The notes under the pieces: generated by a model | The model's input: only the letters and a program-made list of their open reading frames with translations | Told to the model about the DNA's origin: nothing | The model's database searches: none | Shown here: piece after piece, positions 1,740-55,745 of the stretch | Layout: each line of letters begins with the position of its first letter | How positions within the stretch are numbered: the stretch's first letter is position 1 | Assembly (NCBI RefSeq): GCF_015706575.1 | Contig: NW_024037060.1 | Location: 1,009,983-1,073,982, forward strand | Origin: Patiria miniata | Taxonomy: Eukaryota | Length of the DNA stretch: 64,000 nt | Direction: 5' to 3' | Translations under genes and position numbers: made by a program

Positions 1740-1870
1740 GCATACGGTTGGAATCGTGACCGACTGGTCCAAAGCACCAAACTTGGCAGCATGATAGCCT
1801 GATTCTTATAGCCCCAGAGAAGATATTTAGAAGGGGTGACACCTGAAATTCTTTTGGGAAGAGTGCCTAA
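1740..1870 (-). repeat. ~190-bp dispersed repeat family (copies at 1740-1870 inverted, 2596-2790, 4915-5100, 7562-7747)
   Basis: shared core ..gcaaatt(a/t)ggcac(c/t)cttcccaaaagaatttcagg(t)gtcaccccttcaaaatatcttc(c/t)ctaaggctataacaacatat.tgc.aagtttggtgctttggaccagttggtcacgatctt. Confidence 0.8.
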
Positions 1871-2790: not shown

Positions 2791-4667
2791 TAGGCAGGAA
2801 AGTCGAAAATACAGACGCACACTTTGACACATGCTTAGCTTTGGAGAGTCCCAGACGGTGTATAATCTGTGCTCGCTCGGTCCAATATTTGAATATAATT
2901 TTGTAAGTTTAGAAGAGAAATCGGTCCTCGGATAGGGCAATCATCACCCAATGAATAGTACATGGAAGCGCACATTATCAGAAACAGTGCATACTTTGGT
3001 GACAGCATTGTCTTGGTTCTCCAAGAAGAAAGCGAGGTAAAAGACAATACATACATTCATAAATCGTAAAACACATTTGCGTTTATACTCACGTAGTATT
3101 AGTATACCGGGCGTAAATGATTTTAATCATAAATGGCATAAAGCTAATAATAATTTACTAAATTTGTAAAGTTTTGATATTGTTTATCAATTTATAATAA
3201 CAAAAAATGGTTCCGGGTTATTTTGAACCGGGTACATGTGCTAGCAATGTAAATGCAGTGCCAGGGAAGTACCGAGCCTAGAGACAACTATATGCCATTA
3301 CAACGCTACATAATTATTTTAACCGATTGTGACCGCTTCTCATTAACCGACGCAAACCGCAGCAGCACAAACCGACAACGTTGTGCCCTACGATCACTGC
3401 GCAAATATCGTTTCAACTGGTGTGGGTCGTTATTCCCTTGAATTTCGGTTTCATCAAAAACATGTGCATGTATTGAGAAAATCAAATCAACAACGCACAC
3501 GCGACTCCTGCAGCACATGTGCATGCATGCGAATAAATAAAGCAAACTGTGGCGAGGCGTTGTGAACGAGATCCCGGTCCCCCTCCTAATTATCTATGCA
3601 TGAGCATGAGCAATATCACCAATGAGTCCGTATTTCATAAAACCTAAATTCATGCTGCACCGGCTGTGGCAGGGATGAACCGTGAGGTGAAGCAGAAGCG
3701 GTAAGGTAAAGGAGATTTAAGTTATCCTCTCGAGTTTGGACATAAAAGGTCGCCTGGTTTTTTTTGCCCCGCCCACCCTCCTCAGCAAGGTTGCTTGTTC
3801 GGACTCTGGTTTCTACGCTCGATTCTTTCTTCCCCATAGGCAGGGTGTGCATGGACTTATAAAAAGCCTATAGGGTCATTTGCTTTTCATGCATATTGGT
3901 TGTTTCCAATAATAAAACGGGTAACACCACTCAAATTCTGTTGAAGTTTCAGCTCAGTGGATATTACACTTTTCGAGAAAACAAAAACAATACACATGAT
4001 CGCGACACACGATTTCGTCAATAGCACTCTTTTTCAAAAGTCAGTTAATATTAACTGATCGTTGGGATTCACCTACAATAAATTTCACGGGGTGTACGGT
4101 ACTAGTCTAAAGTCCAAGACTTAGTAAGCTTGTCGATAATTAGTCGATATTTACTTTTCGGATAAATGCAAATGATATATGCCTTTAACAAACGACATTG
4201 GTAACATACGAGACATTTCGATGTACGGTACTTTATCACGGATAATTATGAGGGGGAAAGTGTGGCTAAAATAAACGGAAATAAGTTTTTATTGTGTTTG
4301 ATGTTTCCCCTTAAATTCTGTTTGTGTCATTACTGACCTCTTTGCGGCTGGTTTTGTATGAGAAAACAAAACTGTAGAAAGGACCAAAGGTGGGTAAAAT
4401 AAACGGAAATAAATTTGGATGTGTTTGATGTTTCCTCTTAAATTCCTTTCCTGTAATGTGACTTATTCCGTTTGTCATGTAACTCCCATCTTGGCTGCTT
4501 TTTTTTTTTTTTTAAGTATTATCGATACATGTGACATGCCTCCCCTCAACATTGAAGTGGCATCATCATCATTGAATTATGTCAACACATACGAGGAAAC
4601 CAAGTGAAAAGAAAATATATGTATGTGCCAACTTGCACAGTTGAGGATAGACCAACTTCATTATGTA

Positions 4668-4912
4668 CAGTGGCGTAGCCAGGGGGGGGGGGGGGGGGGG
4701 GGGGGGGCGACAGCCTCCCCCCCCCCCATGAAAACTTGTCGCCCCCAGTCGCCCCCCCCCCCCCCACTGAGATTTTGAGTTTCTAAAAAAAATATCATTG
4801 ATCTACATGACGCCCCCCCAGGATATGTTCTAGCCCCCCCCCCCCCCCCAGCGCCCCCCCCCCCAGCCCCCCCCCCCCCCCCCCTCATGACAAATTCCTG
4901 GCTACGCCACTG
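4668..4912. mobile_element. hAT-like MITE (TIR CAGTGGCGTAGCCAGG, 8-bp TSD ATTATGTA, poly-G/poly-C core); second copy at 7323-7562 inside duplicated unit
   Basis: cagtggcgtagccagg...cctggctacgccactg terminal inverted repeats flanked on both sides by attatgta; interior is G/C homopolymer runs. Confidence 0.75.
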
Positions 4913-5100: not shown

Positions 5101-7322
5101 TGTATCCTTCTCAAACGTAGACCAAGTGAACAAAGTAGACCAAGTGAACAAAGATATAAATTGTCTCTACAGTGTGGTAACGGCGCTAAAAACCTTTTCA
5201 AATAAAAGAAAAATAATAATTAGGACAAAAAACGTACAAAATGAAAAGGAAAAACATCGTTCGCTTTTGAGTTTGGTTTACACATTTGGACAATTTGCCG
5301 GGTTTACCTTAGATCAGCCGTAGTACCATCGGAAAGGATGATAGATTATTTTCATTTTACAGGTGATTTGATGTAAGAAGGAAACCTGTCGCTTATAAAA
5401 ATCGTCATTTTTCGAGTAAACCCATTTTGAAACCTTCGTGCACAAATACACTGGTCCCAGTGCCCTCTAGGATCGTACTTAACTGCTTTTCAGGGGCGGG
5501 AACCAGTCAGTTGTAAATCGTTTCAGTTAAATGTATACATTTCCAACGCGTCGAAAGATTACAAACGGAGCGCCGCGGCGCGTGGCGTGTGGCTAGCCAT
5601 CCAGTGTTTACGGGCCAGATTCCAGGGTCTGTGTACACGTACGTGCACACTAACGTTACATTCAACGAAAAAAACGTATAACGTGAGACCTTACTTTTCT
5701 CATTGAAACGGTTTCCGACTAATTAAATTATATTTATACATCGCACTTCCCGTGGCATCCTTTACCATTTTTCAGTGAAGACAAGGGCAAGATTACCATA
5801 TGCGAAGTTCACTTATTTTCCTCTGTTTTGACTAACAAGCCCCCAGATAGCAATTTCATGTCATCAAAGTCAATTTCAGCAGTGAGAAAATACAAGCATT
5901 TTCTTAGAAAACACTTAGAATTTTTCAGTCCAATCTCATAGGGTTTGTACACAGGTTGTTGAGTGAACTTCGTATATGGAAATCTTTCCAAGACAAGTTT
6001 ACAATTACTCGGCAAAATTGAAAAATTATCCCCTAAACTGTCGCCTGTTTTGAATTTGTGACCCAATACTTTCGTATTACACGACACGGAAAAACAAAAA
6101 CAAAATGCATCAAATACTCTGTTTTTTGCGCTAAGGTTTGCAAAAGTGACTTTGATTGCCTTAAATTGCCTTAAACTGTGGCGAGGCGTTGTGAACGAGA
6201 TCCCGGTCCCCCTCCTAATTATCTATGCACGAGCATGGGCAATATCACCAATGAGTCCGTATTTCATAAAACCTAAATTCATGCTGCACCGGCTGTGGCA
6301 GGGATGAACCGTGAGGTGAAGCAGAAGCGGTAAGGTAAAGGAGATTTAAGTTATCCTCTCGAGTTTGGACATAAAAGGTCGCCTGGTTTTTTTTGCCCCG
6401 CCCACCCTCCTCAGCAAGGTTGCTTGTTCGGACTCTGGTTTCTACGCTCGATTCTTTCTTCCCCATAGGCAGGGTGTGCATGGACTTATAAAAAGCCTAT
6501 AGGGTCATTTGCTTTTCATGCATATTGGTTGTTTCCAATAATAAAACGGGTAACACCACTCAAATTCTGTTGAAGTTTCAGCTCAGTGGATAGTACACTT
6601 TTCGAGAAAACAAAAATAATACACATGATCGCGACACACGATTTCGTCAATAGCACTCTTTTTCAAAAGTCAGTTAATATTAACTGATCGTTGGGATTCA
6701 CCTACAATAAATTTCACGGGGTGTACGGTACTAATCAATAATCCAAGACTTAGTAAGCTTGTCGATAATTAGTCGATATTTACTTTTCGGATAAATGCAA
6801 ATGATATATGCCTTTAACAAACGACATTGGTAACATACGAGACATTTCGATGTACGGTACTTTATCACGGATAATTATGAGGGGGAAAAAAGACATTTGG
6901 AGAGTACCAAGTGTGGCTAAAATAAACGGAAATAAGTTTTTATTGTGTTTGATGTTTCCCCTTAAATTCTGTTTGTGTCATTACTGACCTCTTTGCGGCT
7001 GGTTTTGTATGAGAAAACAAAACTGTAGAAAGGACCAAAGGTGGGTAAAATAAACGGAAATAAATTTGGATGTGTTTGATGTTTCCTCTTAAATTCCTTT
7101 CCTGTAATGTGACTTATTCCGTTTGTCATGTAACTCCCATCTTGGCTGCTTTTTTTTTTTTTTTTTTTAAGTATTATCGATACATGTGACATGCCTCCCC
7201 TCAACATTGAAGTGGCATCATCATCATTGAATTATGTCAACACATACGAGGAAACCAAGTGAAAAGAAAATATCTGTATGTGCCAACTTGCACAGATGAG
7301 GATAGACCAACTTCATTATGTA

Positions 7323-7562
7323 CAGTGGCGTAGCCGGGGGGGGGGGCGTGGGGGCGACAGCCCCCCCCCCCCCCCCCATGAAAACTTGTCGCCCCCAGTC
7401 GCCCCCCCCCCCCCTCCCCCCCACCCAGATTTCGAGTTTCTAAAAAAAATATCATTGATCTACATGACGACCCCCAGGATATGTTCTAGCCCCCCCCCCC
7501 CAGCGGCCCCCCCCAGCCCCCCCCCCCCCCCCCCTCATGACAAATTCCTGGCTACGCCACTG
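7323..7562. mobile_element. hAT-like MITE, copy in tandem unit 2
   Basis: same TIRs and TSD as 4668-4912; homopolymer lengths differ. Confidence 0.75.
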
Positions 7563-9094
7563 ATTATGTATTACACATTAGGGATTAACGATTTATGCAA
7601 ATTAGGCACCCTTCCCAAAAGAATTTCAGGTGTCACCCCTTCAAAATATCTTCCCTAAGGCTATAACAACATATTTGCTAAGTTTGGTGCTTTGGACCAG
7701 CTGGTCACGATCTTGTCAAATATTGGGTCTAAGCCACCTGACTATTAAAATGTATCCTTCTCAAACGTAGACCAAGTGAACAAAGTAGACCAAGTGAACA
7801 AAGATATAAATTGTCTCTACAGTGTGGTAACGGCGCTAAAAACCTTTTCAAATAAAAGAAAAATAATAATTATGGACAAAAAACGTACAAAATGAAAAGG
7901 AAAAACATCATTCGCTTTTGAGTTTGGTTTACACATTTGGACAATTTGCCGGGTTTACCTTAGATCAGCCGTAGTACCATCGGAAAGGATGATAGATTAT
8001 TTTCATTTTACAGGTGATTTGATGTAAGAAGGAAACCTGTCGCTTATAAAAATCGTCATTTTCCATTTTGAAACCTTCGTGCACAAATACACTGGTCCCA
8101 GTGCCCTCTAGGATCGTACTTAACTGCATTTCAGGGGCGGGAACCAGTCAGTTGTAAATCGTTTCAGTTAAATGTATACATTTCCAACGCGTCGAAAGAT
8201 TACAAACGGAGCGCCGCGGCGCGTGGCGTGTGGCTAGCCATCCAGTGTTTACGGGCCAGATTCCAGGGTCTGTGTACACGTACGTGCACACTAACGTTAC
8301 ATTCAACGAAAAAAACGTATAACGTGAGACCTTACTTTTCTCATTGAAACGGTTTCCGACTTAAATAATATTTATACATCGCACTTCCCGTGGCATCCTT
8401 TACCATTTTTCAGTGAAGACAAGGGCAAGATTACCATATGCGAAGTTCACTAATTTTCCTCTGTTTTGACTAACAAGCCCCCAGATAGCAATTTCATGTC
8501 ATCAAAGTCAATTTCAGCAGTGAGAAAATACAAGCATTTTCTTAGAAAACACTTAGAATTTTTCAGTCCAATCTCATAGGGTTTGTACACAGGTTGTTGA
8601 GTGAACTTCGTATATGGAAATCTTTCCAAGAAAAGTTTACAATTACTCGGCAAAATTGAAAAATTGTCCCCTAAACTGTCGCCTGTTTTGAATTTGTGAC
8701 CCAATACTTTCGTACTACACGACACGGAAAAACAAAAACAAATTGCATCAAATACTCTGTTTTTTTGCGCTAAGGTTTGCAAATGTGACTTTGATTGCCT
8801 TAAATTCTTGTCCACGTGGAAAGAAAAAATTATCAAAGTTTGTTTTGTTTGCACCCTCATTTATAAAAAATCAAACTCCGCCCACAAAATGGGCAAGATC
8901 CAGGATGGGTCCCGATCTTAAAATGATTTCTAGCCCATTTTGACCCCACCTGCCAAGGTTCATGCTTTTACCACAAAGTGCACGATTTTGGCCAAAAATG
9001 GACCTAAGCAGCTCCACTATATAACTTAACGTGAAGAGGTTCGCGCGCGCATGCGCATATGACATAAGTCACTATCAGCCACAGCGAAATTGAA

Positions 9095-11225: not shown

Positions 11226-14200
11226 TTAGAGTCTACCCTTTGATTCCCAAAGAGAGAAAATTCACTCCATTGGACCAGACGTTTTAGAGTGAAAATCATT
11301 CAATTAGATCGAGTTTTCACTCACATGTTAATAAAGAACATGTTTTTACAACTTACTAAATTTTCTCACTTACCGTTTCTGGTTGAAATTGTCTTAAAGT
11401 CGTCGACACGAGTACAGCTATGATGAAGTTAGATGTACTTTGGGCTTTAATTCCTTCCAGGTGTAAGACGAATTTCTTGCTTGCGAGGAGAAGAAATTAT
11501 CCTCTCTTTTCAAGGCCGTTAAATTTCCCCGCAAAAACTGCTGGTATTTCTCACCCCTCGGTTTTATTGTACCGCACCCCTTATAGACTCGCGCCCTTAT
11601 ACGATCCTTGTACCACTCATCTGATAACAACCACAATTAATACCAAGGTTTTTTTTTCAGAGATCGTTTGCGCCATATTTCAATGAATCTGTCGGGTCCT
11701 TTTTAGACTTTGGAGGCGGCGATTTTTGAAAATTGGTCCCAAAGTCCGTCACTGAAAGGGCGGGTCCTATGTTGCTAGATCACATGTGGCTGCAGCCGAG
11801 TCCCATCGTGCGCATGTCCAGGTGACGGTGGTGGTGGTGGTTGCTAAGCACATGCGTCTGTTTCCATAGCCAGCAAGGTATGCGTGCGTGCGTGCTCACT
11901 GTCATAATTTCTGACAGCATGTGGTTTTACTGCTGAGAAATAATTATGGTCTGGACCGTGTGCTTTGGAAAACACAGGGTTTATTTGAATGAACTGAAGC
12001 AATGATATTAGGTTTCGGATATTTAGGCGTGTATATCGTCAGAAACGCGTATGTAAAAACTAGCGGAGGTTTTTACTTCGGGAGGTGTTTTGATTTATGG
12101 TGACAAACGAAGGACTTGGTGTGATCCGAAAATCGGCAGGCTAAATGATAGATACTGAGCATTTATTATTTTCCGTCGTTAAAGCTGCAATCTCGTCCGG
12201 TTATTCTTTTTGTCAAAGAATTTGCAAGACTCGGACTAGGGCTATTATATAACTAATAAGCTTACTTTATTTTTAGTCTGAAAATTTGAGGACAATTACA
12301 GTCCAGTTCTGCTGGCACAATGCAGTTTTGTGATTTATCATAGAGCAAGAAACTTCCAAAATTACAGGACACAGACCACTGATCTCTTGTCCATTGCCCT
12401 TATCTTGGTTGTAAACTCTGCTCGGGCTATCGGTGGGATAGACCCATTTATTATGTCTCCTCTTGAATCTCCACTGAACAAATATCATTAATAACCAAAA
12501 TACACAAGAGTAAGTTTATATACATTTCCGATAGATAACCTTCCATTCAATCCCGCTGATTAAAAGCGCATACTTAATCAAATGAACTGTAGGTGTGAGT
12601 GGGAGCGGCCACAAAGATTTGCATTCCTTTGCGTGGTTTATTGGTTGTTCCCTTTTTAAATTTATTTCATGAGATTAGCGGCACCTCCGGTATGACCACA
12701 GCTAAAATGGAGTGGCGCCCACCCCTACTATATGAATTTCCTCTCAATTTTGAATCTTCATTGAAAACTTCGCATAAAAATGACAGTAACATAAAAAACG
12801 TAATTTAAAAAAAAAATTTTTTAACAATAATAACGTCCCTTATAGTCCCCGCCCCCCCCCCCTCCCGTGTCCCGGTATCCCCTCCCCTCCCTCCGCCTTT
12901 GAAACTTTTTCCCAGGATCCCAGGGACATTTTGTGGAGTTTGTGTTTGAGAAACGTTGAGTGTTTTGCCCAAATTGAGGAAAAAGTTCGCAGTGACGCAG
13001 TAATATTGTCTGCTGCATGAGTGGCGGGGGGGGGGGATTCAAGCCTACATTGTTAGGATCAGCAGTGATGGAACAGCAAGGCGGACAGTCGGGGTGTTTT
13101 ACCAATACCGACCTGCAAACTATACACTGTAATAACATCTAGTTCGATTCTAGAAAACAGTTCAACTTGTACCCAGCTGACTACAGCTAGGGTCAGGTGG
13201 TCAGAGGGATAATCCCCCTCCTGAAAGCCAGATCCGCCCCTGGCGAGGTGGAGGGATGGGGATCGAACTATCTGATTCAATGGGGGCGCTGTTCAAAGCG
13301 GGCAATCTATTGTAAATATACGTTCTGAAAATTAAATCTACCACTACCAAGCGGGGGAGGCTATTACTAGGACCTAGTACAACAAGTTTGAACATCTGTT
13401 CCTTGCTCTATGGTTTGAAGTTGCTTGTGCTTTCATTTCCCTAATAATAATAAATAATAGGCGTTACTAGACCTATTATTTTGTAGGACGTGGCTCATCC
13501 GGTGTCATGATAATACGTATTATACTCTACTTGGAAAAAGAGTGATGAGTTTCATCCCAGTTTGGCTATTGCAAGTCTAATTTCTATTCTTATTTTGATT
13601 GTACGTCAGCTAATTGACATAACTAAGGGGTGAGGGGTTTCTGGCCTGTGCTCCCTTGCCCCCCCCCCCCCCCCAACTTGTTTCCGGCTCCATCCATTCA
13701 GCTGATGACGAAAGGACCAATAACAAGTCTAAAAGGCTTCCCTTGTATTTCAAGTCTGACACCATGAAAAAGTTTACGTGAGTTTTAGTTATGTTGTCTT
13801 AGAGAACCAGACCTCTGTTGAAAGTGGGTGGTGCAACCGCCGGCAATGCGGGTCGTTTGGTGGTGCAATACATCGTTGTCTTGGTTTTGTTTTTTACCAA
13901 ATTGCAAGTCAGCAATAAAGAGAATTCATGAGACAGAAGATTCCAGAAGTGATGAGGCTGAGAATGAGATGATGACAGTGTTTGCAATTTGTCGGGTACT
14001 TTTAAGTAGCTAGCTAGGCCAGACATGCCAGATAGAGTGCGGCTGTATCTGTGACTGTGTATCATTTAATCGTCGCTTGTTGCATGCACGAAGCTGAGCT
14101 AGGAAGTACACTGCACTGTCACTAGGAATAGGATTGCTAACGTTCTGTGTAGGTAATTTTGCTTTTTCCCCCCTTCTTATTTTGCTGTGCACTAGTTCGA

Positions 14201-21600: not shown

Positions 21601-24600
21601 GCTTCATGTTGATGAGCCTTTGATTCTAGTCTGTTGTTTACCGTGACTTGGGCTGTCATGTCTCAAGTTGAGTTGAGTTACCAACAAAAACACGACTCAA
21701 GTCAGAATTGAGTGAATTGAGTGACTCGAGGCTTTACAAGTTTGGCTATAATAAAAACATGTTTTTTCAATGTTATGAAAATAAGATTTTTAACAATTTG
21801 TCCCTTTCTGATTAGGGGTTAGAGTAATGCGCAATGTCAAGTATACATGTGTGTAATAAGTGATTTGAAAAACTCGCCGTGTCTATCGACCGTACAGAAA
21901 AACTCAATCATACAACCGTTTCATGACTAACTGTTTGTTTGTTTTTAAATATAGAGAGCTCAAGTACACCAAGGAGTTACTGGTTCGTTACCGCAAGGCA
22001 CTGGACACTGCCGTCAAGATAGCCACACGTCACAACATCAAACCCATCCGGGGTAAAACCTACTTACTCTGTGACATCGGGCCCAAGATGGATATGTATA
22101 CTGGTGGATCTGGAATGGACAAGGTACAGTGTGGTTCGCCTGTGGATGTTTGAAAACTCAGTCAGCCATGGATTCCTCATGACCTTTGAAACGGGGTAAA
22201 AAAGACCCCCCCCCCCCCGGTCAGTTGTGACGACATTTGAGTAGAGTGCCATGGCCTCGTGGTCTGCAGCATTGAATTATATTTCCATATTGTAGAGGGA
22301 TCGCGCATTCTTGACAAAAAAAATGTTAATACAAGACCTGACATGTAGGAGATAACGCGAGTGCATGTAGGGCGTGCAGCCTTCGAAATATGCGCCCAGT
22401 ACGCTCTGAATAGGGTCATTCTATAAATTTGGGGTCCAAAGTGTGACATTTATCCCGTCCCTGTTACCTTGGTACTTTGTAATTTGCCATTCAAGCATCA
22501 TTAAAAGTGACTTCAAATGACTGTTTATTTGTTGGGTAGGTAGTTTGCTATTCATAATCACTCTTGGAGGATGACTGCATTAAAGAGTGCATCAGAATTA
22601 TACAATCATAGATGTCAGATGTAACAGGGACGGGAAAAAAAGTGAACCCCAAATTTAAAGAATGACGCAATAGTCAATCAGCATCGGTTTCGTATTCTGC
22701 ACAGCCAGGGGTTAGTGAAGGAACATACAAACAGCCCATGTAGTTGAGTTTGCTCCTGATGAGTAGCACAAACAATTTGCTCTGCGATATTTTCTTCTCA
22801 AGAGCTTTGGTTACTTCTTGTTTTTCTCCTAGACTAGAGAGAACGGCCTCCTGCTGGGTCTTATGTGTAAACACTCTTGCGAGGAGTGCATCTTGGTCAG
22901 CTATGGGGTCAACGACCAGAAGGTCATTGAACTGGAGAAGGGAACGCTCCTGGACAATGTCAAAAGCATCGTTGAATATGCAAAGGTAATTCAAGACAAA
23001 TAAACACAATATGTGACCGGATTCCACGAAATAGGAGTAATACATTGTTCAAATTGAGTGCCTGTGGCTGCAAATTGTAAAGATGGCGATACAGTTTTCA
23101 TTTTCATTTTTTCGTTTCTTTACAATATACAGGTATATATAGGTAGGTAGGAATATAATTCATGTACACATGCATTCCGGGCCCCTTCCTCCAATAGGAA
23201 TACCAAAATGCATGTGCGCCTCGTCTTTAAGAACGCATGAAGCATGCGCGTGAGCGTCACACCACCGCAGTAAAAGCTTCTATGATGAGATTTGAAGGTT
23301 TGCATGGTGGAAAGATACTAAGACAAGATAAGTTTGCGGTAGCACCATGTGAATAAATCTCTTTTGTGAGTATGTGTGGTTCTGAAAAGAACCGGAGGGA
23401 CTCAACGTTTCGAACAGTATGCTCTGCCCATCGTCAGGAGAATGAGGGATTCCAACGATGATGCGATGATCAGCATTCCAACATCGCATCATTGTTGGAA
23501 TCCCTCATTCTCCTGACGACAGGCAGAGCATACTGTTCGAAACGTTGAGTCCCTCCGGTTCTTTTCAGAACCTCACATACTCAGGAAAGAGATTTATTCA
23601 CATGGTGCTACCGCAAACTTATCTTGTCTTAAAAGCTTCTAATTCTGGTCGCTGGATTCCTCTATACATGTATGTGTAAATCAGACTTGATTGTAAAAAA
23701 ATCGGGAAACTTGCTTAACTCAAACTCCGAATACCTAAAAAATTGTATCCATTCCCTTGAGATTTGACTTGACGAGAGTTTACTGTACTTGTGACTGGAC
23801 TCATGATTGACTTGTTGATGAATTTGACAACAATCAGTAATGCATTAAGCATTGAGTTTTACTTCACAGGCTGCTGATGGTGACATGGAGGACCACTGGA
23901 ATGCCCCGCCCAGCAAGTTAAACATGACCACCTTGTACGAGGCGCTGCGCGACCGCGTCCACATCGACAACCTGATCATTGTCGGGCAGGACTACACGGA
24001 GGACGGGACGGGCTGGAATGAGATGGAGGACTTTGTGGCCAAGTACCGTCAGCTGGTCAACCCCAACCTGATGTATGTCCAGATTGATCTGACCTCCTCT
24101 TATTCCTGGTAAGATTGTCTCTATATTTGCTCTACTATTTTGGTTTCAGACTGGATTTTGGTTTGTTCCCGAAACGCAGCACATATGTTCCCATCGTACT
24201 ATGTCAAAGATCCATGTGACCGCCCGGTTTACTCATGGTCAGCCACCATTGCAGTGTGCCAGCATTTGGTTAGCAACTACGTCGTGTGTTGTGAACCAGA
24301 CAGTAGGGCTTATTTTCACTTAAATATGCTAATACTTAACCAAATGGCAATATGGTCACTACGTGTGCCCTTGAAGGTTTTCATAATCATTTAGTACTCA
24401 ACCCAATAAATGCTTAGCACACTTCACAGGTGTGCCTTAACTTGAGTATATCGCACATGAGGTACGCTCACAATTCCTTCGGTTCGTAGAAGCCGAGTTA
24501 CGAGGCGGATGGAACCAAAAAGTCTCTAAAAGAACCAAAGAGTCAGTGGTTGAGCAGGAAGAAGACCACATGGGCCTTATCACAAATACTCAGACAATTT

Positions 24601-27600: not shown

Positions 27601-30600
27601 CAAAAAAATTTCGACTCCAGAAAATTCGGATGATTTAACATACAGTGTGCTAGGAATTTGCCTTGAAGAGAACATTTTTCAATGTCAAAGTCGACATTCT
27701 GCATATATGGTCTTAACATCAGTCTCAATGTTTCACGTGGTACCATGCAAACCAAAATGCAGTTCATTTAGAAACCTCTGTTATTATCAAAAAATGATCC
27801 CCCAGGAAAAACATAAAAATCATGAATCGTTTTTCCTTTGTACAAAATAGATACCATTTGAGAAAGTATGCAAAAGAACATTGATATTTTCCCAAGAGAC
27901 ACTACTGGTACCGGTTTTCATATTACCAAGTCTCTCTTCTTAAAAAAAAATTGTTTATCAAAAGTATTTAACACTTTTGCCACCAAATTCTTGGAGTTTA
28001 TAGTTGGAAAGTGGAACTAGTACTTTTATGTCCTTTTTTTGAAAGCCCTGATCACCATCTTCTTTAAGTTTGAGTGACATGATTCAAAGAATTGAACAGA
28101 AACGTCAAGTTACCTTGATTGTTCCCTACAAATCAAGTATTGGTTGACAAGCTAAAACAGACCATGTAGTATCTGGCAAGCTACGTTTTATCTGTGTTTT
28201 TTATTGGTTTGGTGTTTGTCCTTCATTTTTCAGTGAGGTTCCCTCTTCCTGCCAGTCAGCATTCCAAGCTGAGTCAAACGCAGCATCAGAGAAGATAGAG
28301 AATCTCAAGCAGCGAGTGCGATGCAGCGGGCTGGAGGTCTTTGATGGGTAAGATGTCTTCAATTTGTTTTTACAAATGGAACTTCCTTGGCTCCCCCCAA
28401 AAATTATTTTTGTTTCAAAAAGCCAAGGAAAAAATAACATTGGCTTCATTTTCTGTGACTTGCCAAACTGGTTGTCAAATTTTGGTCTACAGTTGTAGAC
28501 TTTTTTACAAATTCAATTTGGATGTAGAAAGCTGTGGTAAACTTGTTTATGTATTTGACATTCTCAAACTCTAGAATTTTGTTTGGATCATTTAAACATC
28601 ACAAACTTGAGTGTGAAGCATTTTTATGATGTATCTTCTTGCAGCAGTTCTGTTGCCAACTTGACATTAGATATTGATAAAACGAATAATAACCTCAAAC
28701 TTTTTTTGAATATTTTTCTCTCATAAATTAGTTTTTTTCCAGCAAATGTCTAAATAAGCTAACAATCACATATGTTGGGAAAGTGGACAAGCCTTCACAG
28801 TAATTCTTCCTGCTAAGATATTCATAAATACCTCATAAAGACTGTCTGCTCCATTACAACATGTATCCCCATATCTCTCTCTTTCCAGATATCCGTGCCG
28901 GTTTGGTGGGGTCGTGGACCACAAACCCGTTACCACCAACTTGGAAGAGATGGGTATGCGCGTCGTCAACAACTTGTGGAACTCATTCGTCAAACATTTT
29001 CCTGAAGAGGTAAACAAGGCCAAACTTTTGTAGAAATATTTCCAATTAAAGAAAACTGCTGATTGTAGCTGATGTTTTCTTTCACTTGTAAATGCCCAAA
29101 CAAAGGCCAAGAACTACTGAAGGTGAGGGTTACAAATTAAAATTAAAAAAAAGAGCAAATAGGAGTCAAAGTGACAGGATATCCTTTCAGATTGCTTAAG
29201 AATTAGCCAGTTTGGTATCTCTATGAAGTAGTCCAGGTCAAAGGTCATTCGGGCTAAAATAGCTTACGGAATGTTACATGTTACGTTATTTTACACAAAT
29301 GCCCGCTCTGGTTGTAATTAACATGCGAGCGTCTTGTGCCCATCTCCCTGCGCCGTCTCTCTGTGCGTTCATGCGCATGGCATATCCTCAAACTTCTCCC
29401 AAATTATACTCACCATATCTTTGTCTTTGAATCATCCAGGAAGCCTTCTTGGACGAGCTGTCACACGAGGGAGCCCTCCATCAGGCCTTCCTGGAGGCCC
29501 ACGTCGCCGGCTTCAGCGGCCGTAAGACCCAGCTGCGGCAGTGCCTGGACCTGATGGACGCCTGCCACAAAGGGCTGATGGTCATCTGCGGAAAGAGCGG
29601 CTGTGGAAAGACTGCCCTCACAGTAAGGAAAAAGAAGAAAGAATAAATGAAGACATTGCAAAAATGCCATTTACCCATTAGCACATGAACTACATTGTAT
29701 GACATTGTATGACATTGTATGACATTGTACTACATTGTATGACATTGTATGACATTGTATGACATTGTATGACATTGTATGACATTGTATGACATTGTAT
29801 GACATTGTACGACATTGTATGACATTGTACGACATTGTATGACATTGTATGACATTGTACTACATTGTATGACATTGTATGACATTGTACTAGATTGTAT
29901 GACATTGTATTACATTGTATTACATTGTATGACATTGTATGACATTGTATTACATTGTATTACATTGCATTACATTGTATTTATTCCCTGATGAATCCAT
30001 AAAACCATACAGTGCTGGGGCGGTTTGGGGCAGTACAGAGAGTAACAGGCTGGATGTTGGGGACAATTCATTTTTTTCAACCAAAGATAGGAATTCACAT
30101 TTGATTTGATGAGTATTTAACAAAACTTTCACGAGCTGTTTAAATGTTTAGCCAACACTAAACAAAGGCTGGCACCAGTTACTGTGCAGTTCCACATAAG
30201 TCGTAAATGTATTCTAATTTCTTGTTGAAGTTTGAAAACACTACCTCCATTGTTTTCCCTTGTGAGTTAGTTTATGATTTATTCCCTTGATGCATATTTG
30301 TTATTTTTTTGTTTTCTTTTCATGTTTTTCCTCCCAGTCCTGCCTGGCCCAGCGCTACAAGAACAAGATATTGGAGTCTGACGGTAACCACGTCTTGGTT
30401 CACTTTGTGGGTGCAGCGGTGGGATCCAGCAACGTCCTGGCCGTGCTGCGACGCCTGTGCCTGGAGCTCAAGAAGCGATTTGCTCTCACTCTCACCATAC
30501 CAGAAGACTTCAAGTGAGTGCTGTGCTCTTTCTGGTATCGTGTTCTAAATTTCAGTGCAAGTAATTCTTGCAAAATTATCCAGCGAAGGTGGTGTTCTCT

Positions 30601-33600
30601 CTCTAAACATAGCCAAGATTCTTTTTGTTAACTCCACAACCTGCATATTGTTCTCCAAACAAACCTGGTGTCATTATTGTTCTAATTACAGCAAACTGGT
30701 GACCAAGTTCCCTGAGTTCCTGAAGGGTGCTGCAGTGCATTGTGGGAGTTCCCCGTTGGTGATATTTCTGGACGGGCTTGATCAGATGGAGGAGGCGTAT
30801 CAGGCCAACAACATGGAATGGCTGCCAAAGGATATCCCAAAGGTAGAATTCATTTTCCTTAGCTGAAACTTCCAACTTTTTTAAAGTTGCACTCTCCATG
30901 TTCTTCAACTAATTTATTTTTTTTACCGAATACATTTTCAACTTGTTTGTTTTGTTCCAACAAAAAAAAAAAATCCTTTTTTTTCTTTCTTGGACATCTG
31001 CAACCCTCTGGTGTTTTGGGCTCAAACAGATCCACTTTGCCAGCAGACTGGTCCGTACATTATCAGTTCTGATCACACATCACTGAATTATTCTCCCAAA
31101 CCCACGGCCAGACTGCATCGTAGAAATACAAGTTCCATTACAGATGACACGTTCAGAGGATTAGTTCAGGCGTTGTATAAAGCAAATAATAATAAAAAAA
31201 AAAAGGTTTCATATTAGTGTGATAGAAGAAAATTAATTTCATTCGGAGACTGAAATTACTCTTACCATTGCACTAATAAACATTCATTATCTGTATAATG
31301 TACCAGCTTATATTTCAGCATAAGACACAGAATAGGCTCAACTACAAACGTGGTAAAAACGTACGATTTTGTTGTTGCTTCCCCCACCAGGATGTGATGT
31401 TTGTGGTCAGCACCGTCGTGGACAGTCAATCCCACAAGGCACTGCTTCGCCGTAACCCCTCAACTCTGACCCTTGGCCCACTTGACCTGCTGGACAAGGC
31501 CACCGTGGTGAGACGCATGCTGGCCGTCCACCGTAAGACACTGGATGAGTCCCCGTTCAACAACCAGGCAAGAACATGACTTTTTTTTATTGAGAGAGAA
31601 GAAAATGCCTATAGTGTCCCTGGAATTCAGTGTCAAATTAGGCTTTACCCTTCACCGACGTATAAACACTGTATACTCAGTGTGTTACCTCCCGAATGAA
31701 AGTTGGACAAAATCACTCGTGTGGGACTCGAACCCACGACCTCCTGCTTTCTAGTGCAGATGTCTTACCACTCGACTACCGAGCTAACAGGATCGGTTGG
31801 CTGGTTCGAATCTGATGTACATAGCAGCGGGTACTATTAACTATTCATAAGATGGAATTCAATTATCACATTTATTTCAGGGTTCCCACAGCCATGGAAA
31901 ATCCTGAAAAATGCTGTTATTTCAAACTATCATTGAAGCTCACGGAAAAGTTATGGAATTTTGTTAATTTACAAGGAGTCCTGGACAGTTGATACTCCAA
32001 GAAAAAAGCCAAGGAATTCTGTAGAACCCGTATCTGATGATGTGTAATAAATGGCTGTGGCAGTCTTCCAATTTGCATTCTGGTTTACTACACTCCCTCT
32101 CTAGATGCAAATATCATGTAAAATCTAAACAAATAAATAAACATACTTATATTTATAGTTGAAGCATTGAGGGTAATTTTAATTATTACATGTAGAATAG
32201 AGTATAGCGCTGTTAAAGTCAGCAGAGCCTACAGACAACACACAAAGACAGACTAAGAATACTTGGCAAAATTCATCATTTGAACTTTTTGATTCACTCT
32301 TTGCAGATGAAGTTACTGGTTGCCAAGAGAGAAGCCAACTTACCATTGTTCCTCACTCTGGCCTGCGAAGAACTGCGTGTCTTTGGAGTCTTTGAGCAGG
32401 TAATTGAAGATAAATCACTCAAAAAAGAAAATTGGAAAAGTACTCTGTGTTCCTTAATACAACTAAGGTCTTACAGGTTAATGCCAATCAATCACATCCA
32501 GTTTCAGCTCATGTAACAAGCTGTTGAATTGTCGTAGTCATTGCTCCCCCTTGTTACTTGTAGCTGACTTGAGATTTGACCTTTCATTTTACTTATGATT
32601 TGACTTTTGACTCAATATTTGTTTCATGACTGACTTGTGATTGATTTGTGATTGACTTGTGATTGACTTGTGATTTGTGATTGACTTGTGATTGACTTGT
32701 GATTTGACCTGTGATTTGACCTGTGATTTGACCTGTGATTTGACTTGTGATTGGCTTGTGATTTGACTTGTGATTGACTTGTGATTTGACTTGTGATTTG
32801 ACTTGTGATTGACTTGTGATTTGACTTCTGATTGACCTTGTCATTTGACTTGCGATTGACCTGTGATATAACTTGTAATTAAACATCAGGTAGGTCTTGT
32901 GATTGAATTTGTGATATGACTTGTGGTTAAAGTTGTTAACGAACTTGTGATTTGACTTGTTGTTTCACTTGTGATTGGACATGTGATTGATTTGTGATTT
33001 GACTGATGATTGACCAGGTATCTGAGAGGCTGAAGCGGATGTCTCACACCATCAGCGCCTTGCTGCAGGAGGTCATGCAGAGGCTGGAGATGGATCATGG
33101 CAAGGAGTTACTGGCTACAGCCCTGGCATTGCTGGTGTGTGCAAGAGACGGTAAGTAGGCATTGGTATAAATCTTATCAGTTTTTAAACTAAGAATAAGG
33201 TTTATATTTATAACTCTAAAAGGGCAATTCATTTTTCAGATCATTGCCGCTCATTATGAACTTGTGATTTGGCTTGAGATTGACTTGTGATTGACTTGTA
33301 AAGTTGTGATTTGACTTGTGATTTTACATGGTTATTTCGGGGAAGAAGGGCAAAATTAGTGATTTATTTGTGTTGACTCATTTGACTACCTCCATTCACT
33401 TCGCCTCATGAGGTCGTCAAATCAGTCAACTTTTCACGCTTCTTACTTTCTTCCAACCGTAACATGATGTTGCTTCATCACGGATTTATCCAGGTCTCCT
33501 TGAGGATGAGCTGCACAGTCTCCTGAGTCTTCACACCCTTCTGGGAGGCAGCAAGTATCGTCTTGAAGACATCAAGAACGTCCGTCTGACCGCTGAGCAC

Positions 33601-48890: not shown

Positions 48891-50404
48891 ATTAAAGAAG
48901 ATATATAGTGTGTCATGCTTAAAACTTTATTGATGATTTGAAACTTTGAGATTTATGTTCACATAGTAGGTAGGCAACAGTGCCAACGTTTAATTATTGA
49001 GGTATTAAATGGAAAAAAAAATATTGCAAATACTTACTGAGTTTAAAGATAACTCTAAAAGTATCAAATGTTCTGAGTGTGTATCTTGTACCGCATGCTA
49101 TAAGTTTCATGGAAACAAAAATATTCAAGTTTGTATTATTAAGTAGATTATGATATTTTTTTTCTTCAAAATTTGCTTTCCCGAAAGAAAAGAAGTAGTA
49201 TTCTGGGTTTGTTTGGAATAGATTGAAAAATGAGTTTATCTAAAACTGTTGGTAAAGCAAAGAATGTTGGCAATTTTTGAGTCTAATATTTATTGCCAAA
49301 ATGTTCAAACAGCTAACTGTGTACAATGTGAAAATTTATTAAGATCATTTTATCATACACTGTGTAACAAATGCAAGGAATTTCTAATGTAAAAAAGTTT
49401 AGGTAAGAAAGCGCACATTACTTTGTCATAATGCAATGTCAATCAGTTATCTTGGGAATAATGTACAAGATTCCAATATTTTTTGGAGTTTGGGTTTGTT
49501 TCAAGGTTTGTTGTCACAAAATTTTTAATTTTTTTTATTTGATTGGATATAATAGCTAGAATTAAAGAAAAGTGTATTTCAGAGCAGAGAAAATGTGTTT
49601 GGAGTTGAGCGTTTTATACCGCTCCACAAGGTTAATAAATATTACAAATTCTACCAAGATACCTAGATAAAGAACCGTGTTGAATGTAATTTTATCGAGA
49701 TTGTAAGAAAGCACTAACAATTGAGAAATCACTGATCATGTGTTTGGGAATAATGAGTAAACTCGGATTCTCGGTATATTTTAAGAATAGTTAGGTCGTT
49801 GAACAGAATAAGAACCAACCCAAATACGTGATATAATATGTCTTCTGTATGTTAAATACGGTCTCTTTCCTTTTTCTGAATTTCATATTTTTGTGAGGTT
49901 TGTCACAATAGTGTATTAACCCGTTAAGTATTATCATTGTCTGAATAAAAATATTGGAGGGAAGAAACGAAACGCATTTTCAATAAGGTGGTCGTGGGAA
50001 ATATTTTTGTATAATCTTTGTATAATTCTGGCATATTACTTTATAGCTTGTATTTTAGTCTGAAATATTACTTATGAAGTGTAGATGGATATAAGAGATC
50101 GCTATAACAATTTTATTCAAAAGAAACTACTTTTATTTCACTCTGTTGTCTCAGATGATCGCAATGTTGTTGCAATTCTATTAATAAAAAATTGATTAAG
50201 AGCCACTTTTGTCCGAGGTAGCTATTCATTTAGATTTGAGATTTCCTGTCTTGTTGGCAAAAACGTTGAAGTTTTCGAATGTTGTTGAGTGAACACATTT
50301 AAAGTTTCAGCCCTGCGTGTTATTAAATTAAAACAATGAATGCAGTTTACCTTATAAAAAGGTTTATAAATATCAATTATGTTTTAAATTCTATCTTTGG
50401 ATTG

Positions 50405-50595
50405 ATTGTGGGGCTGTTCCCAGCTACAGTGCTATACTGGGTCAACCCATGGTCAGGGAAGCAAGCTTCGCCAAGACCCGGTTACAAAAATCGCGTGAAT
50501 AACATCGCAGCTGCGCTGTGGCAACTGCCGTCAGATGTTAAGCTGACGAGAACAGATACTCTCACATGATCTTAGCCAGGAGACCGAGAAGCGAT
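50405..50595 (-). ncRNA. U2: U2 snRNA-like gene, copy A (in ~1.4 kb tandem unit)
   Basis: minus-strand read ATCGCTTCTCGGTCTCCTGGCTAAGATCATGTGAGAGTATCTGTTCTCGTCAGCTTAACATCTGA..GAGATTTTTGTAACC (Sm site); TATA box ctatataaagg ~30 bp upstream (+strand 50625-50635). Confidence 0.75.
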
Positions 50596-51819
50596 ACCCT
50601 GAAATGTGTTCTGCTCCCCTTTATATAGGGACAGACGAGGCAAAACGTCCGGTAACCGCAAGCACGCAACTGTAAAACGTTGAGTCAACGATCGTTCGTA
50701 GACGTCATAGCATGGTTCTAAAACGTTTTGTTTGTGGGCGTCTTCACACTTTTGACATGACACGGGTGAATGATTGAACACTAAGGTAGGTCAAATACTT
50801 TGTGACATGCGAGGAATTTCTAAAAAATCAACAACAACAAAACTTCAGGTAACAAAGATCAAGTAACAAAGCTCACATTGTGGGAGCAACTATGTACAGT
50901 TGCAATATTTGTTGCAATGTGTCTGGGTTAGTTCAAGGCTTGCTCAGGCTGCCACAAATTTTAGAATTGTTTTGATTCGATTGTTGGATATAATAGCTAT
51001 AATTAAAGAACAGAGTATTTCAGAGAAAATATTTTCAGGGATAGGAATTATAATACATTCTAGCAAGATATAGATAAAGAATCATGTTGAATGTAATCAT
51101 GGTTTTTTTTTTTAAATTGTAAGGAAGCACCACAAATTGATAAATCTACAGGACTATATCATGATCATGTCTTGGAGAATAATGAGTAAATTTTGTGAAT
51201 CAGATTCTCGGTGCATGTTAAGGATAGTTTGGTTTAACAAAATAAAACCCACCTTAAGTGAAATAAGTTAACTTCTGCATTTACTTTGTCGCTTCCCTGT
51301 TTCTGAATTTCTTATTTTTCCGGGTGTTCGCTCATAATACTCATTTTCGGAATGAAATATGAGGAAAGAGGAGTGCATTTTCACTAAGGCTGTCATTATG
51401 GAGTATATTTTGTATAATCTTTGTAAAATTCTGGCATATAACTTCATAGCTTGTATACGAAGTGTAGATTGATGTAATTAGATTTCTCTATCGAGATTTT
51501 TGTTCAAAAGAAAATGTACTGTTATTTCATTATGTTGTCTTTTGATGATGATTGCAATCATGTAGTGGTAATTGTATTGATGATTTTTTAAAGACCGGTG
51601 AACAGCGTGTTTTTCGGAGGGATTCATTTAGATTTTAAGTTTTGTCTTGGCCAGAATGTGAAGATGCTGAAAGAACACATTTAGAGAAATTATAGGACTT
51701 TCTTAAGTTCATGCATCCTATTTTGAAAAGAAAATTTAAAAAGTTCATTAGGTTTTGTTTTATGAAAACAATATATATAATTCTTCGGTTATTTTCGTAT
51801 TCTATCTTTGGATTGATTG

Positions 51820-52008
51820 TGTGGGCTGTTCCCAGCTACAGTGCTATACTGGGTCAACCCATGGTCAGGGAAGCAAGCTTCGCCAAGACCCGGTTACAAA
51901 AATCTCGTGAATAACATCGCAGCTGCGCTGTGGCAACTGCCGTCAGATGTTAAGCTGACGAGAACAGATACTCTCACATGATCTTAGCCAGGAAGGCCGA
52001 GAAGCGAT
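51820..52008 (-). ncRNA. U2: U2 snRNA-like gene, copy B (second tandem unit)
   Basis: minus-strand read ATCGCTTCTCGGCCTTCCTGGCTAAGATCATGTGAGAGTATCTGTTCTCGTCAGC..; TATA ctatataaagg upstream (+strand ~52035-52045); flanks ~90% identical to copy A. Confidence 0.75.
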
Positions 52009-53378
52009 GCCCTAAAATGAGTTCTGCTCCCCTTTATATAGGGACAGACGAGACAAAACGTCTGGTAAACGTAAGCACGCACCGCGACGTTGAGTCAACG
52101 ATTGTTCGTATAGTGACGTCATTGTGCGCTTCAGAAACATTTTGTTTGTGGGCGTCACCATCCCGTAATCCTCTGACGTATGACGCGGGTGACAGAATAC
52201 GTAATGAGGATGCAAGCTTCGCTGATGCAACATAACACACTACCAAACGATTGTTCTGTTGATGTATGAAATAATTCAAGTTACTTCCGACTTATTATAT
52301 TCCGAAAGTGACTTTCGACAGCACCCCAATTTTGTGTATTACATGTATATGCGCACCTCAGTAAATGATACATTACAAGCGTAAACAACTGAAGCAAAGT
52401 TGACTCATCATCATCTTGGCTTGTCTTTTGGAAACGTCGCCTATAAGTCGAAAACTTTGCCTGTCGTCAGCAAGTATTCCTGCCTCCGTCACGGTCTCAT
52501 TCCCAATCTTTGGGCATGTTCCCATCTCCATGTTGGGCTCCGGTCAGTCTTCGCTTTCATTTTAGCCTTGCCTCCAAGATATGTCTCTCTTATAGTAGTC
52601 ATAGCGCTTCAAAATTAATGACCAATATTCTGGAGTTCAATTTGATGGTATATTCAACACCCAGTCAGGTTTAAGTTCTTTATTAGCAGTGTGTCCTCAC
52701 GTCTTCGATGGTATTCCGATCATCTATGTACAGCAATTCATTTCAAAAGTTCTGATTTTTGTTGGTCATTTTCTGCTTGTTGTAATTTAGAGATCCAACT
52801 CCAACTTATCTAGATAGTCAAAGTTCAACCAACCTGTCTGTAGCCATCCTGTCCGGTTAATAATAAACAGTGAATAATTATACAGCTTGTAACAAATGTG
52901 GTTTCGGGTCACTTCTGACATTTCCACTATCTGCTCACTAACTCACATTGTCACAACGGCAACGACGAAAAGATCTACTTTTTGTGATTTTTTTAAATTT
53001 ACTTTTTGAGTGTAATTATCGCATAATTCGGCACAAGGTAATATTATCTTCAATTATTCCCAAATTAAAGCCAAAGAAAATTAAAGGTTGAAAATTGAAT
53101 ATGCGTCTGTTTGATCTCAATATGTTGAAGAAATGTCATGGCAAAAAAAAAAAATTAAACTGAATGTTGGTGATAAATGTCCGTTGAAAATTATGAAATG
53201 CGTTTCGTTAAAAAAAAATTCAAGGTAGTTTGCACTTACGGTACAATGGGTCATCGCATCCGACGCGTGCTCGTTGCGTCAGCTTAAAACGTTCAACCCA
53301 CGTCTGTATCTGTATCGTTGACAAAACGTTTAGGTCCCAAAATTCTCTATAAAAGATCGAGCAGAACCGTTCCATAGC

Positions 53379-53567
53379 ATCGCTTCTCGGCCTTCGTGGC
53401 TAAGATCATGTGAGAGTATCTGTTCTCGTCAGCTTAACATCTGACGGTAGTTGCCACAGCGCAGCTGCGATGTTATTCACGAGATTTTTGTAACCGGGTC
53501 TTGGCGAAGCTTGCTTCCCTGACCATGGGTTGACCCAGTATAGCACTGTAGCTGGGAACAGCCCCAC
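53379..53567 (+). ncRNA. U2: U2 snRNA-like gene, copy C (inverted relative to A/B)
   Basis: ATCGCTTCTCGGCCTTCGTGGCTAAGATCATGTGAGAGTATCTGTTCTCGTCAGCTTAACATCTGACGG..CACGAGATTTTTGTAACCGGG; TATA ctctataaaag at 53345-53355; shared 3' flank AATCAATCCAAAGATAGAA (3'-box candidate). Confidence 0.75.
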
Positions 53568-55243
53568 AATCAATCCAAAGATAGAATCTGAAAATAAGGG
53601 AAGAATTATATATATACTTTTCATAAACAAAACCTAATGAACTGTTTAAATTTTCCTTTCAAACTTGGATGCATGAATTTGAGATGCATGAAATGTGTTC
53701 TTTCAGCATCGTTCATATTCAGGCCAACAAAGAAAACAACAGCCCCCACAATCAATCCAAAGACAGATCTTGAACACTTTTTGAAACAGATTCAACCCTA
53801 ATAGAGCCGCTTTATATGGGAATTGGTTTTTAGGTATTTGGCTTTAGACAGGAAAGAAATAGGAGACATTGACCGGAGATATCTACCAAGTTGACGTTTA
53901 GTTGTTGAGTAATTGCTTAACGAATTTCGAATTATTTGTGACCCGACAGTAACTCATCCGCATATTTTTTTTTGGATGCTTTTGAAGAGCAATAGCTACA
54001 CAAAGTTAAACAATTTAATATTGCAGGCGTCGAAACAGAAAAAGAAGGTGTTTTTCTAATTAAAATATACAAAACGTGAATACTTGTTTAAAGAGCAACT
54101 TTTCTGCCAACCATATGATTTCATGCTTATTTTGTACTATCATTAAAATATCTGACATTTAAGTATAACATTTGAAGGAATTGATTTCCAGTGGATATAT
54201 ATTTTTTTCTTTGTAGTTCAGTAAACAGTTTTGAAGTTTCACAAAATTTGTCACATACGTTCTACAAAAGAAAATCCAATTAATCATAATTCAAATAATC
54301 AAAAAACACTTCTCAACATTTTACCAAAGGATTACGTCAAACTGCCTTGTAACTTGTTTACATTTAATTCAATGGCATAATGCAGAAATTTTGGAATGAC
54401 AAGAAATTGGACAAAAATATAATACTTGTTTGGAATTTATAAAATATATGAATAAGATATATAGTCATTGAATATGAATAAGATATACAGTCATTGAAAT
54501 TCCAGCATTTCCAATTTAAAGCATTATACACATTAATAATGAAAAATAATTTAACAAAATTATGCCCTCAATATTACTCTTTGGTTGGGACTTAGTACGC
54601 GGGAATACAAGGTTAATACGAGTTTTCAAAGATTGTCAGTCGCCCACATGTCCACTAATTATGGGGGGGGGGGGACACGTATTTTTACATTAGATAATGC
54701 TGCATTAAACTTGATATACTACAAACTACAAGGTCTACGAGGTTATATAAAAGTAATACTGTCAAAACGTGGGAATGATCGAGTCACTCCAATTCAAAAG
54801 TTAAATCAAATTATAACTCCTTAATACTGTATGCAGATTTGTTTTGTGCAACATCTCACTGGCAAGCACATAAATATATTTGATAAGAGAAACTTGTGAT
54901 GATTAAAAAAAACTTCTTGCCAGAAAAAACATTGACCATGAGGCCACAGTGTTTGGAAGGGCTCTGGAGAATAATACAAATGTTTAAATATGTGATCATT
55001 AATAGAATATCCGAGTATAGCATTTATTTATTTTTGCCTCTAATATTCGAAAAATGTGAGTGGTCTGGAGAAAAAAATCAATGTGTTGTTTTAGTCCAAG
55101 TATTGTAGTTGTGCGATTTTTTGTTTGTCAGAAGCCAATGTTGCGCATGATTGCAGAGCTGCATGAGATATAATTACCTCAAATTTCTTCTTTTAAAATT
55201 GGTGAAATATCAGTCATTTTGCCACCTTTTTAAACATAATTTT

Positions 55244-55571
55244 AATCAAGGGCGGATCCAGGGGGGCCAAAGGGGGCCATGCCCCCCCCCCCAAAAAAAA
55301 CAACAACCCGAAACCAATTTTTTTTTTTTTTATGTGACATCGCAATAAAGGCAGGCAATGAGTACACCACCATCTTTTCCTCAAAAAAACGTTGGTTAAA
55401 GTGGTCAGAAATTGCCTCAGATCGCACCACAGAGCATCTAGAATCCAACATTTTTTCGGGGCCCTTAAGCGGGCCCCGAACCCCACGCCGTAATTTTTTT
55501 GACCCACTTTTTGGGGGGACCAAATTTTTTTTTGGCCCCCCAAAAAATTGTGTTCTAGATCTGCCCTTGAT
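55244..55571. mobile_element. MITE with TIR AATCAAGGGC(G/A)GATC and G/C-homopolymer interior, just 3' of DIRC2 stop
   Basis: aatcaagggcggatcc (55244-55259) vs gatctgcccttgatt (55557-55571) inverted; interior gggggggcc/ccccccccc runs. Confidence 0.6.
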
Positions 55572-55745
55572 TTTAATAAGCTCTTTGTCAATTATTAACA
55601 AATGCAGGCGCATACAAATCCGGATCTGCAGCCTGTTTAGGCCGGTGCACATTAAGTTTGATCAGCTCATTACGAATATTTGTCCCATTTAGAATAATCG
55701 AACTCTAAATTATTTCAAAATGCGCAGCCTTCGAAGAATACTTTA

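Follow-up and report, generated by a model that had tools for sequence, protein, structure and literature searches.

Three U2 snRNA genes with an altered branch-point-recognition sequence in a 64-kb window of Patiria miniata

Introduction

The GUAGUA sequence of U2 small nuclear RNA (snRNA) is among the most conserved RNA motifs of eukaryotes and is the same in yeast as in humans; it pairs with the branch site of the intron and makes the branch adenosine available for the first step of catalysis. Its U34 (human numbering, pseudouridine-34) is the partner of the intron nucleotide immediately preceding the branch A. GUAGUA is a functional hallmark of U2 and not a criterion of homology, and the U2 of trypanosomatids, a strongly reduced RNA of a protist lineage which RNA polymerase III (Pol III) transcribes, is a natural form without the canonical sequence. 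The human RNU2 array and the U2 repeats of sea urchins, which carry a TATA box, are tandem arrays under concerted evolution. Here we describe a cluster of three U2 genes in which the branch-site reader is altered. It lies in a stretch of 64,000 nucleotides from Patiria miniata (contig NW_024037060.1 of assembly GCF_015706575.1, positions 1,009,983 to 1,073,982), which was analyzed as a whole and is called the window in the following.

Compared with the trypanosomatid RNA, the rest of the window U2 is metazoan-typical, and its promoter type appears to be so as well. Like the tandem U2 genes of human and sea urchin, the locus has units of about 1.4 kb in head-to-tail order, each with a single U2 gene, together with an upstream element, a TATA box close to -30 and a 3' box, but it comprises only two tandem units and one inverted copy, and the spacers (52-65% identity) are not homogenized. 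Human low-abundance U2 variants with changes in the branch-point-recognition region enter small nuclear ribonucleoproteins (snRNPs) and spliceosomes and thereby provide a precedent for a variant paralogue (PMC8457000). These paralogues (RNU2-xP variants such as U2-17P, -37P, -63P and -70P, of which some were found in snRNPs and spliceosomes) are likewise altered in or near the reader, yet they are dispersed, mostly single and of low abundance, and they carry single-base changes or a flanking deletion, whereas the three window copies share one substitution-plus-insertion, are 98% identical and have kept promoter and 3' box. For human RNU2-2, single-base changes in this region are reported to be associated with neurodevelopmental disorders (PMC12424890). 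Finally, engineered orthogonal U2 snRNAs can build up in human cells, where they splice matched reporters and alter the transcriptome (Stevers, Katzman and Jurica, NAR 2026, PMC13019295); these are laboratory constructs with an altered reader that redirects pairing, while the window U2 is natural, multi-copy and apparently conserved.

Results

Three U2 Genes with an Altered Branch-Site Reader

Matches were counted as U2 genes when they were of full length and reached the gathering threshold of the Rfam family RF00004 (46 bits). An Rfam scan of the whole window returned three full-length matches (model positions 1-192 of 192, E = 8e-23 to 4e-24), designated copies A, B and C (Table 1). The first-pass annotation of this DNA, made by reading the sequence, had named rejection by Rfam as the outcome that would speak against its three U2 genes; the scan was run and RF00004 keeps all of them with 116-122 bits. 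Clan competition within Rfam also retains U2, and U12 or another snRNA was discarded as an identity on these grounds. Apart from copies A-C no snRNA was found by Rfam, even with a permissive threshold around the locus. Copies A and B are arranged head-to-tail with a start-to-start spacing of 1412 bp and copy C is inverted, its arms being 98-99% complementary to A and B, so that the proposed layout of two tandem genes in units of about 1.41 kb and one inverted gene was recovered by measurement.

All three copies read AUCAUGUGAGAGUAUCUGUUCU at the position where the consensus is AUCAAGUGU-AGUAUCUGUUCU; over the longer 5' domain they share GCUAAGAUCAUGUGAGAGUAUCUGUUCU, compared with GCUAAGAUCAAGUGU-AGUAUCUGUUCU in the family consensus. 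The branch-point-recognition sequence is therefore GAGAGUA (seven nucleotides) in place of GUAGUA in every copy: U34 is gone and one nucleotide is gained. Infernal aligns GTGAGAGTA to GUGU-AGUA with one inserted base, which agrees with the direct reading and bears out the altered sequence that had been reported for all copies. A second change accompanies it, as the base three nucleotides upstream of the motif is also altered (A30 to U, AUCAAG to AUCAUG). On these sequence data the genes are classed as U2 homologues with an atypical reader and not as canonical U2.

Conservation of the Remaining RNA

Besides the motif and A30U the strongly conserved parts of U2 are intact. These include the 5' end, stem-loop I, the U6-pairing GCUAAGAUC, UAUCUGUUCU, the Sm site AUUUUUG and the loops of stem-loops IIa, III (GCUUGC) and IV. 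In the Infernal alignment the 5' end and U6-pairing segments (AUCGCUUCUCGG; GCUAAGAUC) equal the consensus, and within the 5' 65 nucleotides no further strongly conserved position is altered beyond changes that occur in other U2 snRNAs. The Sm site is located between stem-loops IIb and III, with GAUUUUUG in all copies, and is preceded by the base triplet GAG in B and C and GCG in A. The conserved 5' domain and the Sm site that had been recognized by eye are present where they had been placed. Infernal aligned all of the stem-loops I, IIa, IIb, III and IV. Stem-loop III contains several non-standard pairs relative to the model, although GGUC/GACC, GG/CC and GAAGC/GCUUC can still pair.

Rarity of the Variant Motif

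Searches for the variant in its exact form, conserved flanks included (GCTAAGATCANGTGAGAGTATCTGTTCT), gave no match in any of three collections: contigs from metagenomes, contigs from viruses, and genomes from 185,579 species of prokaryotes, which were included in case of host contamination. A looser scan, which allowed one to three bases between GTG and AGTA, covered at least 120 loci; among the matches listed, 128 of 128 environmental U2 genes carried the canonical GUGUAGUA with a single T. A 30-mer from stem-loop IV, which is lineage-specific, had no match in the prokaryote genomes and viral contigs, and the string of the variant retrieved only unrelated primers from the searchable literature.

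The closest U2 among the matches listed is a metazoan-type gene from the metagenome collection (L070), which is 75% identical to the window U2 over 167 nt. Both share the full-length match, the 5' end, all stem-loops from I to IV, GCUAAGAUC and AUUUUUG. The environmental gene possesses the canonical GUAGUA where the window U2 has GAGAGUA without U34, and the window copies score about 45 bits lower. The two nevertheless have AUCAUGUG, the A30U change and the CAGCUUAA loop in common; AUCAU is shared by the window U2 and six of the 128 U2 matches listed, this gene included. Its accession series (JAAUXW) adjoins that of the record with the best match to the exon of a neighboring transporter gene described below (JAAUXV, GCA_013332995.1).

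Promoter and 3' Box

Each copy is preceded by the same three promoter blocks, namely ACGTTT at -53 to -48, resembling a proximal sequence element (PSE), a TATA box at about -32 to -24 and GAGCAGAAC at -21 to -13. The TATA box occupies -32 to -25 in A and B and -31 to -24 in C, in line with the earlier placement near -30. The blocks persist although the region from -60 to -1 is only about 60% identical between A or B and C. Downstream, about 10-14 nt past the gene, the 3'-box-like AAAGATAGA, also noticed at first pass, is identical in all three copies; we take it to suit the stretch AAARNNAGA in the 3'-box consensus of vertebrate snRNA genes. In some animals a TATA box is the mark of snRNA genes that Pol III transcribes. 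In the window, a T5 stretch lies inside each gene, at the Sm site, and the sequence right behind the gene lacks a T-run, which would argue for transcription by RNA polymerase II with 3'-box processing; Pol III was set aside as improbable on account of the internal T5. Retroposed pseudogenes or a short interspersed element (SINE) were discarded, because promoters and 3' boxes are present and poly(A) is absent.

Sequence Constraint between the Copies

Gene identity between the copies amounts to 97.4-98.4%. In the comparison of units A and B it falls from 97.9% in the gene to 83% in the promoter (-110 to -1), 65% in the first 40 nt downstream and 52-62% in the rest of the spacer. Between copies B and C the identity is 98.4% for the gene and 84% for the 3' flank, but only 62% for the stretch from -60 to -1. 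With 190 of 194 gene columns identical, such a pattern has a probability of about 1e-23 to 1e-40 under drift as seen in the spacers (98% identity in the gene vs 57% in the spacers). The differences between the copies are all unpaired or preserve pairing: the loop of stem-loop I shows a one-base length difference and a C/G change, a C to U change in stem-loop I of copy A gives U·G, a C to U change at the base of stem-loop IIb again gives U·G, and the remaining two are single-base differences, one in the unpaired segment that precedes the Sm site and one in the 3' tail.

These identities point to genes that are kept by selection, or at least by conversion limited to the gene. A concertedly evolving array would consist of many head-to-tail units that are homogeneous over their whole length; we found two units with spacers of 52-65% identity, and because the spacers have strongly diverged, concerted evolution of whole units was ruled out. 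The first-pass annotation had offered variant or pseudogene copies maintained by concerted evolution, or a genuinely divergent U2; the data narrow this choice, with constraint or gene-limited conversion in place of homogenization of entire units. A fresh pseudogene fits the constraint pattern poorly.

Genomic Environment of the U2 Cluster

The cluster is flanked by the 3' ends of two convergent protein-coding genes, as first described: a TEP1-like gene on the forward strand and an MFS-type transporter gene on the reverse strand. TEP1-like exons match Saccoglossus with 72-88% identity in two exons, one of them being 88% identical to the "telomerase protein component 1-like" of Saccoglossus kowalevskii, and Solemya and Patella with 56-60%. 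Protein matches of the MFS exon reach only 47-69%. These matches are those of an invertebrate-like metazoan, and no close relative was present in the protein collection searched. On the contig of a relative that carries the MFS gene (L002), no U2 was detected within 10 kb. A spurious open reading frame (ORF) runs antisense to U2, and the protein search yielded no protein sharing words with it. About 170 nt downstream of copy C lies a 30-nt relic, too short to be reported by Rfam, which represents the remnant of a lost or truncated further unit and shows turnover at the locus. All coordinates are listed in Table 1.

Table 1. Positions of the U2 genes, their elements and the adjacent protein-coding genes in the window; the environmental U2 is given with positions on its own contig.
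Feature	Position	Strand	Evidence
Copy A of the U2 snRNA gene, in the first tandem unit	50404-50595	-	RF00004, 116.1 bits, E = 8e-23
Copy B of the U2 snRNA gene, in the second tandem unit	51816-52008	-	RF00004, 121.6 bits, E = 4e-24; 1412 bp from copy A
Copy C of the U2 snRNA gene, in inverted orientation to A and B	53379-53571	+	RF00004, 117.1 bits; inverted repeats I1, I2
Altered region GUGAGAGUA, copy A	50557-50565	-	sequence reading; Infernal, one inserted base vs GUGUAGUA
Altered region GUGAGAGUA, copy B	51969-51977	-	sequence reading; Infernal
Altered region GUGAGAGUA, copy C	53410-53418	+	sequence reading; Infernal
Promoter of copy A	50608-50648 (GAGCAGAAC 50608-50616, TATATAAA 50620-50627, PSE-like ACGTTT 50643-50648)	-	conserved blocks
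Promoter of copy B	52021-52061 (GAGCAGAAC 52021-52029, TATATAAA 52033-52040, ACGTTT 52056-52061)	-	conserved blocks
Promoter of copy C	53326-53367 (ACGTTT 53326-53331, TATAAAAG 53348-53355, GAGCAGAAC 53359-53367)	+	conserved blocks
3'-box-like AAAGATAGA, copy A	50390-50398	-	identical in all three copies
3'-box-like AAAGATAGA, copy B	51801-51809	-	sequence reading
3'-box-like AAAGATAGA, copy C	53577-53585	+	sequence reading
Two head-to-tail repeat units of ~1.41 kb with copies A and B	49480-52180	-	direct repeat families D1-D5, spacing 1403-1441
Relic of a further unit: terminal ~12 nt of its U2 gene with 3' box (CAGCCCCCACAATCAATCCAAAGACAGATC)	53740-53769	+	read from sequence
TEP1-like gene (TROVE, vWA-like, DUF4062, NACHT and WD40 exons)	14903-47506	+	at least 31 recognizable acceptors; protein matches
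MFS-type transporter gene	~60.9 kb to ~55993	-	protein matches
Metazoan-type environmental U2 (L070, JAAUXW010076719.1)	1811-2002	-	165 bits; metagenome collection

Several further features were observed in the window. A match to the histone 3' untranslated region stem-loop (Rfam, 40.5 bits, threshold 34) is located at 23353-23398 (-) in an intron of the TEP1-like gene; no histone ORF of at least 70 amino acids was obvious upstream of it on the reverse strand. Two sequences resembling transfer RNA (tRNA) were detected by Rfam at 31713-31785 (-) with 43.6 bits and at 48500-48572 (-) with 39.8 bits; ARAGORN calls only the former and leaves its anticodon undefined. The flanks of the two sequences cannot be aligned, for which reason they were rejected as copies of one SINE, and they may be tRNA pseudogenes or the heads of different SINEs. 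A dispersed repeat occurs on both strands and on both flanks of the U2 cluster (661-930, 4661-4888, 7237-7658, 12821-13138 and 55214-55692); its strands translate to poly-proline and poly-glycine ORFs (PPPPPP / GGGGG), and it is probably a fragment of a transposable element. Identical or near-identical pairs of ORFs about 2.6 kb apart (3616-3852 / 6245-6481 and 5809-6087 / 8450-8860) indicate that a piece of about 2.6 kb was locally duplicated in tandem between 3 and 9 kb. Minisatellites with a coding appearance, with SQVKSQV and ITSQITGQ repeats among them, lie in introns of the TEP1-like gene at 29690-29935 (-) and 32593-33098 (-).

Discussion

The reading that we prefer is that the cluster encodes a functional variant of U2, a paralogue which would be expressed and would coexist with canonical U2 genes elsewhere in the genome; with a rough probability of 0.45 it is tentative. 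The absence of the motif change from the scanned collections and from all 128 environmental U2 genes among the matches listed favors such a side form. The analysis establishes the identity of the genes, their constraint, the altered motif and the conserved blocks of promoter and 3' box; that the copies are transcribed, assembled into snRNPs, altered in their branch-site preference and accompanied by canonical genes is what we infer.

Since the other invariant parts are intact, the RNA would be expected to fold and to assemble like ordinary U2. In the branchpoint-interacting stem-loop, as described in PMC13019295, both strands (GAUCA / UGUUC) would be unchanged and the loop would grow from seven to eight nucleotides. 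The retained AGUA could pair with UACU (or yU) upstream of the branch A, and G33 could still pair with the pyrimidine after it, while U34, the partner of the base before the branch A, would be replaced by G plus an extra A. Two arrangements are conceivable: either the branch A lies opposite the extra A, in UACUC-A-C with a pyrimidine at the position before the branch point (BP-1), or the A is bulged and the helix reaches across YUYU ahead of it. The preference would accordingly move from branch sites of the CURAY type to pyrimidine-rich UACUC(U)-A-Y sites. Duplex energies calculated with nearest-neighbor parameters agree in direction with this predicted shift: with UACUAAC the variant reaches -2.5 kcal/mol compared with -5.2 for the canonical sequence, whereas the variant is the stronger partner with UACUCUAAC (-7.8 vs -3.9 kcal/mol) and with UACUCUCAC (-14.2 vs -6.7 kcal/mol).

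A number of observations weigh against a functional paralogue. Scores of 116-122 bits with RF00004 are well under the 165 bits of the closest metazoan-type environmental U2, and stem-loop III shows some erosion compared with the model; low score and eroded stem-loop together also fit a derived lineage-wide U2 or a slow joint decay. Gene-limited gene conversion is able to mimic purifying selection. No canonical U2 gene with GUAGUA was seen within the 64 kb of the window, and the existence of such copies elsewhere in the genome is an assumption of this reading. Finally, 39 acceptors in the window were placed by tblastn, ORFs and polypyrimidine score, and counts of YTRAY vs YTYAY as well as best-pairing scores were compared with deep-intron and shuffled controls. 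The 39 introns showed no excess in the motif counts, and none in pairing to the canonical sequence (z = 0.13) or to the variant in any of three registers (z from -0.5 to -1.7), a comparison that has no power given degenerate sites and a small sample.

A lineage-wide change, in which GAGAGUA would be the only reader of the major spliceosome and branch-site recognition would have co-evolved or relaxed, is unlikely in our view. It would account for the alteration of all three intact copies in two different promoter contexts, for a window without a canonical copy and for the generally derived RNA, with its 116-122 bits next to the 165 bits of the nearest environmental metazoan U2 listed; the lack of excess GUAGUA complementarity in the window introns would also suit it, as degenerate branch sites might tolerate the change. 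A replacement throughout the genome is improbable a priori, however, because GUAGUA is near-universal, because single-base changes in the motif of human RNU2-2 are reported to be linked to neurodevelopmental disease (PMC12424890) and because the nearest U2 among the matches listed shares A30U and is canonical nonetheless. GUAGUA is invariant in all 128 U2 genes among the matches listed, the variant is absent from all three scanned collections, and the window introns show no excess complementarity to the variant either.

We also consider it doubtful that the locus is a decaying or non-functional cluster of pseudogenes in which conversion keeps the gene bodies similar and has spread shared lesions such as the insertion-deletion in the motif. 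Shared derived changes, the lower Rfam score and the non-standard pairs of stem-loop III would be expected of such a cluster; the truncated relic beside copy C testifies to turnover, and any homogenization must be confined to the genes, since the units are not homogenized overall. Against decay stand the promoter blocks and the 3' box, which hold fixed positions in flanks that are about 60% identical, the preservation of structure by the differences between copies, and the intact Sm site, U6-pairing segments and loops of stem-loops IIa and IV; among invariant positions the change is confined to the branch-site reader. Should the copies be silent, the locus would be an unusually well-preserved pseudogene cluster.

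A sequencing or assembly artefact in the motif, for which no supporting point was found, is extremely improbable, as three separate copies, in otherwise distinguishable units and on both strands, carry an identical 9-nt string, which is not a homopolymer and is accompanied by the nearby A30U substitution.

If it is maintained, the variant could be a specialized isoform that steers the choice of branch site and 3' splice site in a subset of introns. Alternatively, the locus could mark the first case of an animal lineage with a change in the motif itself. A metazoan lineage whose only U2 has a remodelled reader, GAGAGUA, one base longer and without the position of pseudouridine-34, is an improbable outcome; if it were true, branch-point selection and the presentation of the branch adenosine would proceed by a helix geometry unlike that of the other animals, fungi and plants examined. 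Whether specialized isoform or lineage change, the locus would represent a natural test of the tolerance of the spliceosome for the geometry of the branch helix, complementing the engineered orthogonal U2 snRNAs.

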